A stretch of DNA of 8,514 nt from a virus (lineage: Duplodnaviria; Heunggongvirae; Uroviricota; Caudoviricetes): IMG/VR virus record IMGVR_UViG_2681813225_000025, one strand, 5' to 3'. The notes under the pieces are model-generated. The model ran no database searches and was not told the origin of the DNA. It saw only the letters and a program-made list of their open reading frames with translations. The position numbers and the translations under genes were made by a program. Shown piece by piece: positions 2,165 to 8,216 of this stretch (positions are counted from its first letter, which is position 1; each line of letters starts with the position of its first letter).

Positions 2165-2353
2165 TCACGAGGACAGAAGTTTCTCGCAATTAAAATTTAT
2201 CAGCTTTACTTTCTGCTCTCTGGACACGCCTGCTTCTTTTTTCCCTGAGAGCATTTTTTCGCATTCTGATTTCGTTAATTTAGATTTTGAATATCTTGTC
2301 CAGTTAGTAGGAGTGCCACCTTCTTTTTCAATAGTGGCAGTTATTTTATACAT
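2165..2353 (-). CDS. Hypothetical small Lys-rich protein (62 aa), in the position of ydaC in Rac
   Basis: ORF MYKITATIEKEGG...CEKLLSS with a strong SD (GGAGG, 5-nt spacer) before the ATG at 2353. The longer track ORF (start 2425) would begin inside ralR without an RBS. Start overlaps the ralR stop (ATGTATAA). Confidence 0.6.
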   Translation of the reverse strand: MYKITATIEKEGGTPTNWTRYSKSKLTKSECEKMLSGKKEAGVSREQKVKLINFNCEKLLSS

Positions 2354-6948: not shown

Positions 6949-7503
6949 CTATTTAATACTCAGCAACTGCTCGACGGTCATATTTTTAATTGCGCTTCGG
7001 TTTACAAGAGTCCAGCCCTGTTTCTCCAGATAAAGGCGGAAAGTGTCCAGGGTACAGACGAGAGCGCCATCAGGAACGGTTTCAGTGAATTCGACGTTGC
7101 CGAATTTGTCGAAGCGAACAACCAGAGTGCGCCCATCGCCCGGAATGATTTTGTTTGTGGGAGTGGTATTATTCTGGCGCAGTTCTTTCTCCATGCGATC
7201 GAACTCAGCGATGTAGGCTTCTTTAAATGCAGCGGCTTTTTTGCCGGTGAAGCCCATCACCAGGAAAACGAAGCCGTTTTTGGTGATTTGGTACATTGGG
7301 AGTTTGCGACCGGTTGAGTCGGTATATTCGCTCGACACAAAATTGTGCTCAGTGAATTTTGCTGAACAGTCCAGATTGCGAATTTTATCCAACACTCGTT
7401 CGTGGCGTTTACCAAAGAACTCAGCGATCGCAATAGACGTAGTGACAGCGCGTCCATTTTCGATGGTTACGTCAGGGTGAGAAAGGGTATGGATAGTAGC
7501 CAT
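6949..7503 (-). CDS. Phage regulatory protein Rha family (N-terminal Rha domain, uncharacterised C-terminal domain)
   Basis: Residues from MATIHTLSHPDVTIENGRAVTTSIAIAEFFGKRHERVLDKIRNL...YTDSTGRKLPMYQITKNGFVFLVMGFTGKKAAAFKEAYIAEF match the conserved Rha-domain pattern (TTS..IAE.FGKRH..VL..IR ... PMY.MT..GF..LVMG.TG.KA..FK.AYI..F). Start set at the ATG at 7503 (GAGG 8 nt upstream) so the Rha domain is N-terminal as usual. The same frame stays open to an ATG at 7800 (283 aa, GGTGA-type SD), so a longer product cannot be excluded. Confidence 0.7.
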   Translation of the reverse strand: MATIHTLSHPDVTIENGRAVTTSIAIAEFFGKRHERVLDKIRNLDCSAKFTEHNFVSSEYTDSTGRKLPMYQITKNGFVFLVMGFTGKKAAAFKEAYIAEFDRMEKELRQNNTTPTNKIIPGDGRTLVVRFDKFGNVEFTETVPDGALVCTLDTFRLYLEKQGWTLVNRSAIKNMTVEQLLSIK

Positions 7504-7667
7504 GATGGCAGCCTCGATAGTCAGTTTAAATAACTCACCACCAAGGCTTTCCACGACCATAAGGGTGGTGAGACGTACAGGGGTGGAAATACCGGTGACT
7601 ACCGAAACCGGCCAGCCTTTCGGCTGCCCTGCACGCCCCACCATAATCTGAATGTGGCTGTGCATTA

Positions 7668-7700
7668 CGCATAAAAAAACCGCATGAGCGCGGTTATGCG
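7668..7700 (-). terminator. Candidate intrinsic terminator on the minus strand (stem AACCGC/GCGGUU, loop GCUCAU, then a U-run)
   Basis: Plus strand reads cgcataaaaaaaccgcatgagcgcggttatgcg; on the minus-strand RNA the hairpin is followed by 5 or more U. Lies between the upstream small genes and the Rha start, inside the alternative 5' extension of the Rha ORF. Confidence 0.4.
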
Positions 7701-7863
7701 CAGTAGTCATCATCGGGTTTCCACGCCCGGCACCCGCTTTATGAGGTGCAGGTGCACTATAATTCCACCCGTTCTGGTTTTCAATAGCTACATCCAACAT
7801 TTTCTCTCACCTTTCATCACTGAAGTGAACTTTGTTGATGCGGTGCCTGGTGCCTCCAGGTGA

Positions 7864-7885
7864 CGTTAACCAGTTAACAATTAAC
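7864..7885. repeat. Short tandem array with 8-bp period: GTTAACCA, GTTAACAA, TTAACGCC (GTTAAC is itself palindromic), next to a GTGCCTG/GTGCCTC tandem at 7842..7856
   Basis: Read directly from the sequence in an otherwise non-coding stretch; operator- or iteron-like appearance. A GATAAT -10-like hexamer follows at 7890..7895 on the plus strand. Confidence 0.4.
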
Positions 7886-7970
7886 GCCGGATAATCCACC
7901 CATAACACTGATGCTTTTAACTGTGCCGCGTGCGCTCAGCCGCATTCACCGCAAGCATCACAAAATTCAC

Positions 7971-8017
7971 TTTAAAAAGGGGCGGCAGGGCAGCCACGGA
8001 GTAGAACTGATGCCGCC
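7971..8017 (-). terminator. Candidate intrinsic terminator or structured RNA element on the minus strand (7-bp GC-rich stem GGCGGCA/UGCCGCC, then CCUUUUU)
   Basis: Plus strand 7981..7987 ggcggca pairs with 8011..8017 tgccgcc; an A5 run on the plus strand at 7974..7978 gives a U5 tail on the minus-strand RNA. The loop is large (23 nt), so the call is tentative. Confidence 0.3.
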
Positions 8018-8216
8018 AAAGACTACACATAGCAATGTCGTTATTTACAACCGGAGGCGCACTCCCACCATTTAAATTTGACAGACAAGACCGACTCTTT
8101 ATGGATACCGGAAATGCGCCTTCGTGTTATGCCCGGTTTTATTTCACCACCTCCGGGCTTTGGTGGCCTCGGCTATACCTCTACAGCGAGAATATTGAAT
8201 TAATCCAGTAAATGGA

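Follow-up and report, generated by a model that had tools for sequence, protein, structure and literature searches.

An antisense-RNA cassette upstream of the Rha gene

A gene for a Rha-family regulator lies on the minus strand of an 8,514-nt stretch of viral DNA (Caudoviricetes; IMG/VR record IMGVR_UViG_2681813225_000025), referred to here as the window. Its reading frame continues 5' of ATG 7503 for 99 codons to a further ATG at 7800, and the intervening segment, 7504-7800, is the subject of this analysis. Judged by its Rfam matches and base pairing, this segment is an antisense-RNA immunity cassette of the type found in P4 (PLE-seqA-cI-seqC), P1 immI (c4) and Gifsy-1 (isrK-STnc1160), placed 5' of the regulator. 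The predicted parts, in the order of transcription, are as follows.

7756..7784, minus: sigma-70-like promoter TTGAAA-17-TATAGT, 10 of 12 matches, equivalent to Gifsy-1 PisrK and P4 PLE
7673..7749, minus: IsrK/seqA-like small RNA (sRNA), Rfam RF01394, 63.6 bits (gathering score 50)
7749-7730, minus: IsrK hairpin 1
7729-7714, minus: IsrK hairpin 2, with segment b1, GTGGAAA (7724-7718), in its loop
7709-7701, minus: segment a1, TGACTACTG, within the IsrK-like sRNA
7695-7678, minus: stem of an intrinsic terminator, AACCGCG-CTCA-TGCGGTT, with a T-run to 7673, at the 3' end of the isrK match
7561..7648, minus: C4/CI-like antisense RNA, Rfam RF01695, 79.3 bits (gathering score 45), full length 1-87
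7643-7627 with 7582-7566, minus: 17-bp outer stem of the C4-like RNA
7607-7596, minus: segment a', TTTCGGTAGTCA, in the C4 apical loop
7589-7583, minus: segment b', TTTCCAC, in the C4 junction
7512..7554, minus: mRNA target region, complementary to a' and b'
7554-7548, minus: segment b2, GTGGAAA, 3' of C4
7523-7512, minus: segment a2, TGACTATCGAGG, containing the GAGG Shine-Dalgarno (SD) sequence (7515-7512) of ATG 7503
6949..7503, minus: Rha-family regulator, 184-residue form, starting at the antisense-controlled ATG 7503

Every element that marks an IsrK/seqA-C4/CI cassette at the level of sequence was found: a C4 RNA, an IsrK RNA with its terminator, a target overlapping the ribosome-binding site and an adjacent promoter. 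The -10 element of the promoter ends 6 nt before the IsrK 5' end, and a promoter-like site, recognized by sequence motif alone, has the same placement in all 12 of the lineages checked, including P4 (PLE), N15 and Gifsy-1. The C4-like RNA has a predicted fold of -49.3 kcal/mol (z = -6.6), and in the alignment of relatives its stems are 98-100% paired, with compensatory changes. A sub-threshold Rfam match to c4-a1b1 covers 7762-7710 on the minus strand. Rfam matches to STnc100, RprA, RT-3 and CRISPR-DR15 fell under their gathering scores and were set aside. A terminator scan by itself did not rise above chance (2 sites found against 1.8 expected).

Covariation of the recognition segments

Related loci (89) were gathered, their unique leaders were aligned and base pairs were counted on the resulting alignment, A1. 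Two short segments differ between the loci, and each occurs in three places (b1, b2 and b'; a1, a2 and a') that vary together. The pairings proposed for the a and b segments are supported by this covariation across relatives. Within the window, a' is complementary to a2 at 12/12 positions, including the GAGG SD, and b' to b2 at 7/7, while the upstream copies b1 and a1 are complementary to C4 at 7/7 and 9/9. Standard pairs occupied 95-96.5% of the cells in alignment A1, values reached by 0 of 500 shuffles, and when the partner was slid by 1-3 columns only ~40% of the cells were paired. Changes on both sides of the helix were seen at 7 of the 12 a':a2 pairs and at 8 of the 9 a1:a' pairs.

The repertoire of these segments is broad. 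Among the 36 sequences compared, a' takes 16 forms and b' takes 6, giving 20 combinations, in every one of which b':b1 and b':b2 are both complementary at 7/7. For b':b2 this count was made with an anchor-based script, since a 3-nt length difference causes MAFFT to split b2, which makes column counts unusable. A scan of IMG/VR with a pattern drawn from C4 nucleotides only, so as to avoid a bias from ORF retrieval, returned 81 unique C4 loci with 35 (a', b') combinations among them.

The Rha initiation region (7495-7560, minus strand) also has a structure of its own. In the window its predicted fold is a strong hairpin with the SD and AUG buried inside (-32.5 kcal/mol, z = -6.5), and a conserved GGTGGTGAG motif, which contains the stop of a short ORF (orf45, below), pairs in this fold with the spacer between SD and AUG. 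The consensus structure of the region showed no covariation, all 8 of its pairs being invariant. From the modelled fold we infer that a conserved hairpin may sequester the Rha SD and AUG.

The predicted regulated start of the Rha gene

Three features point to ATG 7503 as the regulated start: a2 lies over its SD, the recognition segments covary and homology between relatives begins there. On this comparative evidence, ATG 7503 is very probably the antisense-controlled start of a 184-residue Rha-family protein. The motif GAGG-N8-ATGGCTAC (GAGG-N8-ATGGCT) is nearly invariant in relatives and is also present at the P4 kil start. In two loci (L010 and L057) the Rha gene stands behind an unrelated leader, and homology begins exactly at ATG 7503. 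The protein has a Rha domain (Phage_pRha, PF09669, 106.7 bits) at residues 120-205 of the long ORF and a TIGR02681 match (109.6 bits) at residues 10-111 of the 184-residue form. Variable columns in the 184-residue Rha are distributed 98/68/152 by codon position, and the ratio of non-synonymous to synonymous substitution rates (dN/dS) is 0.11-0.36, a classical coding signature.

An initial annotation of the window, made from the letters alone, had proposed as one of two readings a short Rha gene behind a leader carrying an attenuator or terminator, and had suggested that homologues be compared to see where conservation begins. That comparison, through L010 and L057, places the start at ATG 7503, and together with the invariant GAGG-N8-ATG and the position of a2 over the SD it upholds the short gene. 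The leader is of another kind than was supposed; it is no simple cis attenuator and appears to hold a promoter and two RNA genes, the hairpin being the terminator of the sRNA itself.

The leader of L010 and L057 (1287-1501) contains an RNA of the sRNA-Xcc1 family (RF02221, 67 bits). It has an internal CTTCTTAACTG, which is complementary both to the SD region of Rha (CAGTTAAGGAG) and to a copy further upstream. No long ORF overlaps this cassette, which seems to be an analogue of the IsrK-C4 design, either of independent origin or strongly diverged.

A long open frame across the cassette

The cassette is overlapped by open reading frames (ORFs) and preceded by a further sRNA gene.

7980..8031, minus: DicF sRNA gene, Rfam RF00039, 60.9 bits (gathering score 48)
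7807..7811, minus: SD-like GGTGA of the long ORF, 6 nt 5' of ATG 7800
6949..7800, minus: long ORF, 283 residues, beginning MLDVAIENQNGWNYSAPAPH (ORF list)
7504..7800, minus: 99-codon ORF segment of eta/'Ash' type over the RNA cassette, in frame with Rha (stop count, Pfam, relatives)
7535..7672, minus: orf45-like ORF of 45 codons in another frame, counterpart of Gifsy-1 orf45 (ORF list)

The initial annotation had drawn attention to a frame open from 7503 up to ATG 7800 with its SD-like GGTGA, and to a hairpin with a U-run lying across that frame at 7668..7700. Both are present, the first in the ORF list with GGTGA at 7811-7807 and the second as the terminator at 7695-7678. The second in-frame ATG of the long ORF is ATG 7503. 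Read in its own frame, the 99-codon extension contains 0 stop triplets; each of the two alternative frames contains 6. The AAGG core of the SD of the long ORF is kept in aligned relatives. ATG 7800 lies 5' of the internal promoter (-35 at 7784-7779) and 51 nt upstream of the predicted transcription start, so transcripts from the internal promoter cannot encode the 283-residue form. The extension matches the Pfam family Phage_ASH (PF10554; 69.9 bits against a cut-off of 26, E = 3e-19) at residues 14-108, and its frame is referred to below as the Ash frame.

Judged by its stop triplets, the frame of the long ORF is kept open far beyond chance. It is open in 35 of 38 unique leaders, over 96-99 codons to a conserved ATG, and length differences among intact variants are all multiples of 3. 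Polymorphic stop-triplet sites in 34 intact leaders number 30 in the other two frames and 0 in the long-ORF frame; under equal chances this has a probability of (2/3)^30, ~5e-6, for sites that are not fully independent. The a and b segments are hypervariable, and the new stops that they acquire fall freely in the other two frames and never in this one. Among the 81 unique C4 loci from IMG/VR, the Ash frame is uninterrupted between a point 5' of the -35 element and the start of the cargo gene in 79, compared with 0 and 1 for the other frames, and stop triplets between -136 and +140 number 3 in the Ash frame and 252 and 416 in the other two. In most lineages the cargo ATG is in frame with the long ORF or overlaps its stop. 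We lean towards the view, from these sequence counts, that selection acts on the translatability of the frame and not on its amino-acid sequence.

Variants of the junction between the long ORF and the cargo gene were also observed. In one IMG/VR locus (L170) the TGA of the long Ash-frame ORF overlaps the cargo ATG (ATATGA), a layout of termination and reinitiation, not of in-frame fusion. In cassettes whose cargo gene encodes a derepression protein of family PF25738 (phage P88, L097, 1271-1891, and 18 IMG/VR loci, such as L111 and L121) the cargo ATG is out of the Ash frame, which is nonetheless open for ~100 codons further, across the whole cargo gene.

The orf45-like frame is not conserved, measuring 2, 23, 27, 28 or 45 codons among relatives and 2-28 in most.

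Relation to known immunity systems

The arrangement of the window follows that of P4. The parts occur in the same order, namely an internal constitutive promoter, IsrK/seqA, the C4/CI RNA and a target over the ribosome-binding site of the first short gene. The isrK and C4 models of Rfam each match P4, Pfam Ash matches both elements, and in each the long ORF begins 5' of the promoter and in frame with the short gene, with the start context '...EAAIMAT...' common to both. The P4 frame is open for 217 codons; it begins 5' of PLE, crosses isrK and C4, ends with the kil stop and contains '...EAAIMATTLTPSHP'. The two differ in cargo, a 184-residue Rha-family protein in the window compared with the 65-residue Kil of P4, and in host element, that of the window being a Rac-like lambdoid prophage with the cassette in the early-left operon after DicF. 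In addition, the seqA-like element of the window ends in an intrinsic terminator, whereas timm, the main immunity terminator of P4, is Rho-dependent. In P4 the CI RNA is described as lying within eta, with the constitutive promoter PLE internal to that gene and Kil as a truncated product made on read-through; full-length Eta comes from the upstream late promoter only, with coupling to the gene that precedes it, and termination is prevented when Eta is translated (PMC10111431, summarising Sabbattini 1995 and Forti 1999). A target arrangement like that of the window has also been described for P4 seqA-CI-seqC (PMC10111431, PMC3632133) and for the action of P1/P7 c4 on the ant transcript (PMC12197685).

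The in-frame design recurs in other phages. In mEp460, ST64B and cdtI the corresponding ORFs have 383-386 codons from the first ATG, their start overlapping the stop of the upstream gene, and in phiP27 the long ORF likewise runs in frame through the cassette into the short gene. In all four the long ORF begins 5' of the internal promoter.

Gifsy-1 shares with the window an IsrK sRNA with a terminator, a C4-like RNA downstream (STnc1160), a promoter in the same position and an a2 segment over the SD of the cargo gene, and a 45-codon ORF occupies the same place in both. Read-through of the isrK terminator, a processed STnc1160 RNA and control of anrP have been reported for it (PMC4825925). The Gifsy-1 cargo AnrP, which has an ORF6N domain, is unrelated to the Rha of the window. 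Translation of orf45 and anrP is coupled in Gifsy-1 by an overlap between the stop of the one and the start of the other, whereas the orf45-like ORF of the window ends 31 nt before ATG 7503. Translational coupling of orf45 to Rha was considered on the Gifsy-1 model and rejected for this lineage, given this distance and the shortened frame in most relatives.

Like the C4 RNA of P1/P7, that of the window has two recognition segments with paired upstream and downstream targets, the downstream pair lying at a ribosome-binding site. In the immI region of P1/P7, C4 reportedly has two segments complementary to a1/b1 upstream and a2/b2 downstream, an arrangement that Citron and Schuster are said to have described in 1990. 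Different specificities give heteroimmunity in P1/P7, and in P1 the regulated ribosome-binding site belongs to icd, which is followed by ant. N15 resembles the window in having isrK and C4 matches and an annotated terminator upstream of its Ant gene, and differs in its frame across the RNAs, which lacks an ATG and does not connect with the cargo gene. A processed small RNA is said to control the N15 antirepressor at the anti-immunity locus, reportedly in work by Ravin from 1999. The c4 RNA of P1/P7 blocks the ant ribosome-binding site (PMC12197685). The occurrence of IsrK-C4 systems in lambdoid prophages was pointed out in 2013 (PMC3632133), and that of RNA genes inside Bro-network genes in 2023 (PMC10111431).

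Proposed mechanism

The reading that we favour, with reasonable though not strong confidence, is a nested pair, suggested by the sequence and by analogy with P4: an RNA immunity cassette that would control the 184-residue Rha, overlapped by a long ORF resembling eta. The RNA layer of this explanation, which rests on Rfam matches and covariation, is very probably correct. For the transcription start, RNA processing and repression at this locus, we infer the course of events from homologous systems. The internal promoter (7784-7756) would start transcripts at ~7749, most of which would end at the hairpin and give the IsrK/seqA-like sRNA carrying b1 and a1. Transcripts that read through would carry the C4/CI-like RNA, whose a' and b' segments would pair with a2 and b2; the a2 duplex would mask the GAGG SD of ATG 7503 and switch the 184-residue Rha off. 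The IsrK-like RNA could compete for C4.

The 99-codon extension would then be the counterpart of the P4 eta ORF, an identification that we hold somewhat probable on the conservation statistics and the P4 precedent. The retention of the open frame beyond chance suggests that the long ORF is probably translated from upstream transcripts. Such translation would be possible only on transcripts entering from the ydaF-DicF early operon. DicF is co-oriented with the long ORF, 180 nt 5' of ATG 7800, and has its own terminator-like hairpin; in a near-identical locus (L001) ydaF and a repressor-side gene lie upstream in the same orientation. By this gene order, DicF would be part of an early operon whose transcripts would carry ATG 7800. 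Ribosomes on the long ORF could prevent both the terminator and the antisense target from functioning; Rha would then be produced as a 283-residue fusion, with expression of kilR-recET downstream despite the immunity RNA.

Several observations weigh against this explanation. The frame is broken by 1-nt indels in T-runs in three leaders (L014, L060 and L088), and L060 and L089 have a different promoter segment with no upstream ATG. For the IsrK part alone, with 6 polymorphic sites to count, the depletion of stops is suggestive. Most of the loci in the comparison come from prophages of E. coli, and they lack phylogenetic independence. The promoter of the upstream operon lies outside the window, and the DicF terminator stands between it and ATG 7800. 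The long ORF of the window has its own SD and no overlapping upstream ORF, and does not appear to be coupled to an upstream gene as eta is in P4 and as the 383-residue ORFs are in mEp460, ST64B and cdtI. Gifsy-1 and N15 have the RNA cassette without an in-frame long ORF; the ORF is therefore not essential to the cassette. A homology search of the window Rha against Gifsy-1 AnrP found none (E = 0.2).

Alternative explanations

Some of these points would fit a locus in which only the 184-residue gene is real. The cassette would work as described and the long ORF would never be usefully translated, its openness being inherited from a stop-free ancestor and held by constraints on the RNAs. We regard this as unlikely. 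It would account for the position of ATG 7800 upstream of the internal promoter, for variation that is flat across codon positions with a dN/dS of ~1, for the leaders in which the frame is broken (L014, L060, L088) or the ATG absent (L060, L089), and for Gifsy-1 and N15. It agrees poorly with the distribution of stops: stop triplets number 3, 252 and 416 by frame in 81 unique loci with 35 specificity combinations, and the new stops that arise in the a and b segments never fall in the long-ORF frame (~5e-6 under equal chances). Length differences in multiples of 3 and cargo starts in frame with, or overlapping the stop of, the long ORF in most lineages also oppose it, and P4 eta is an experimental precedent (PMC10111431) for a translated frame of this kind.

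The other reading offered by the initial annotation was a 283-residue protein with a novel N-terminal domain that resembled nothing recognizable. The resemblance exists: besides Phage_ASH, the extension matches several PHROGs, and PHROG families include a fused Ash-Rha form. A true two-domain protein (Ash and Rha), in which the N-terminal part is a folded module and the hairpin incidental, would be in keeping with these matches, with the conserved frame and with RefSeq, where the Prokaryotic Genome Annotation Pipeline (PGAP) assigns three E. coli loci (L001, L002 and L003) a long CDS of 849-855 nt, called 'Rha family phage regulatory protein' (852 nt for the 283-residue form), and no RNA genes in the Rha leader region. 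Such a protein is nevertheless very unlikely here. The purifying selection expected of a folded Ash domain was looked for by codon position, the check that the initial annotation had suggested for 7504..7800, and by dN/dS, and was not found at the protein level: variable columns in the extension number 59/57/58, with no periodicity and no excess at the third position, and dN/dS is 0.5-1.5, compared with 0.11-0.36 in the adjacent Rha. This flat variation argues against a protein domain under purifying selection. The residues that vary most coincide exactly with the a and b pairing segments, which covary as RNA, and the 'domain' spans the promoter -10, both Rfam RNA genes and the sequence up to Rha codon 9. 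Rha occurs without Ash in L010 and L057, and an NCBIfam search of the extension and of orf45 gave no matches, there being no model for the Ash part. Of the long reading, then, the novel domain falls away, the start codon also lying 5' of the internal promoter, while the frame kept open stands and with it probable translation from upstream. The short and long readings, put forward as exclusive alternatives, appear to be nested, each of them partly right.

The history of the Ash family agrees with this picture. The family was founded in Pfam on the P4 ORF that overlies the cI RNA gene, and the model matches P4 eta at residues 37-161. P4 records annotate the ORF at this match as 'put. ash gene' or 'cI gene product (AA 1-137)', which is a pre-1990s protein reading of a region now known for the CI RNA. 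Read against these coordinates, Pfam 'Ash' is the translation of an IsrK-C4 cassette and not a novel domain. An Ash domain has been reported, without an assigned function, in Rha proteins of Stx phages (PMC8951638), and PF10554 has been used as the profile for P4 epsilon in a survey of P4-like satellites (PMC8628076). In the two P4 regions concerned (NC_001609, our L090; 796-1440 and 1433-1720), the epsilon (derepression) protein belongs to PF25738, and PF10554 matches eta. The marker of that survey therefore detects the immunity-RNA region and not epsilon.

A purely cis-acting attenuator leader, its terminator switched by alternative folding with no trans-acting RNAs, can be set aside as extremely improbable: it would suit the terminator between promoter and gene, the alternative cis structures shown for the Gifsy-1 homologue (PMC4825925) and the hairpin predicted in the initiation region, but the consensus of that region has no covarying pairs, the three-way covariation of the a and b segments, including an SD copy 150-190 nt downstream, fits an antisense RNA with two targets, and the homologous C4, CI and STnc1160 RNAs are stable, processed and trans-acting (PMC4825925, PMC12197685).

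Implications

Both the IsrK-C4 cassette and the nesting of eta and kil in P4 are already known, and the locus takes its place within current understanding without overturning any of it. Modestly new are the quantitative evidence for a frame selected for translatability, not for sequence, and the size of the specificity repertoire. RefSeq labels the 283-residue form only and leaves without annotation the predicted promoter, the two sRNA genes and the probable regulated start of the 184-residue protein. The comparative data suggest that the nested-gene design of P4 is widespread in lambdoid prophages. The dozens of pairing specificities in which the cassette occurs are a likely basis of heteroimmunity among co-resident prophages, and would offer a ready set of orthogonal antisense switches.

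A more general proposition, to which we give an even chance, is that the 'Ash domain' on phage proteins of the Rha, Ant and Bro types is a ribosome track over an RNA-gene cassette and not a protein domain, with one frame kept translatable across lambdoid prophages. If so, that frame has been kept through promoter, IsrK, C4 and targets over at least 35 antisense specificities. Upstream, induction-dependent transcripts could then override antisense immunity, and the P4 eta mechanism would be shared by a large class of prophages. A translated regulatory RNA region, instead of a folded module, would be what PF10554 and the long RefSeq CDS of the 'Rha family' represent.

Neighbouring features of the window

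A partial STnc100-like match at 7839-7953 (minus strand) is sub-threshold, at 39.3 bits against a gathering score of 47, and recurs in L007, L073, L010 and L057. The early-left operon has three or four RNA genes in a row (DicF, the STnc100-like match, IsrK and the C4 region). In L002 it is dicB, and not kilR, that follows Rha.

At the other end of the window, the sRNA pair SdsR/RyeB and SraC/RyeA (113 and 176 bits; 463-607 and 735-1811) adjoins the prophage integrase gene. The position of this pair beside the integrase suggests integration of the Rac-like element at the ryeA/ryeB locus and not at the site that Rac occupies in K-12. The RalA antitoxin sRNA (2169-2347, plus strand, 219 bits) lies opposite two minus-strand ORFs, 2165-2425 (86 residues) and 2346-2579 (77 residues). 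One of these is presumably RalR, which would make the pair the type I toxin-antitoxin system of Rac.

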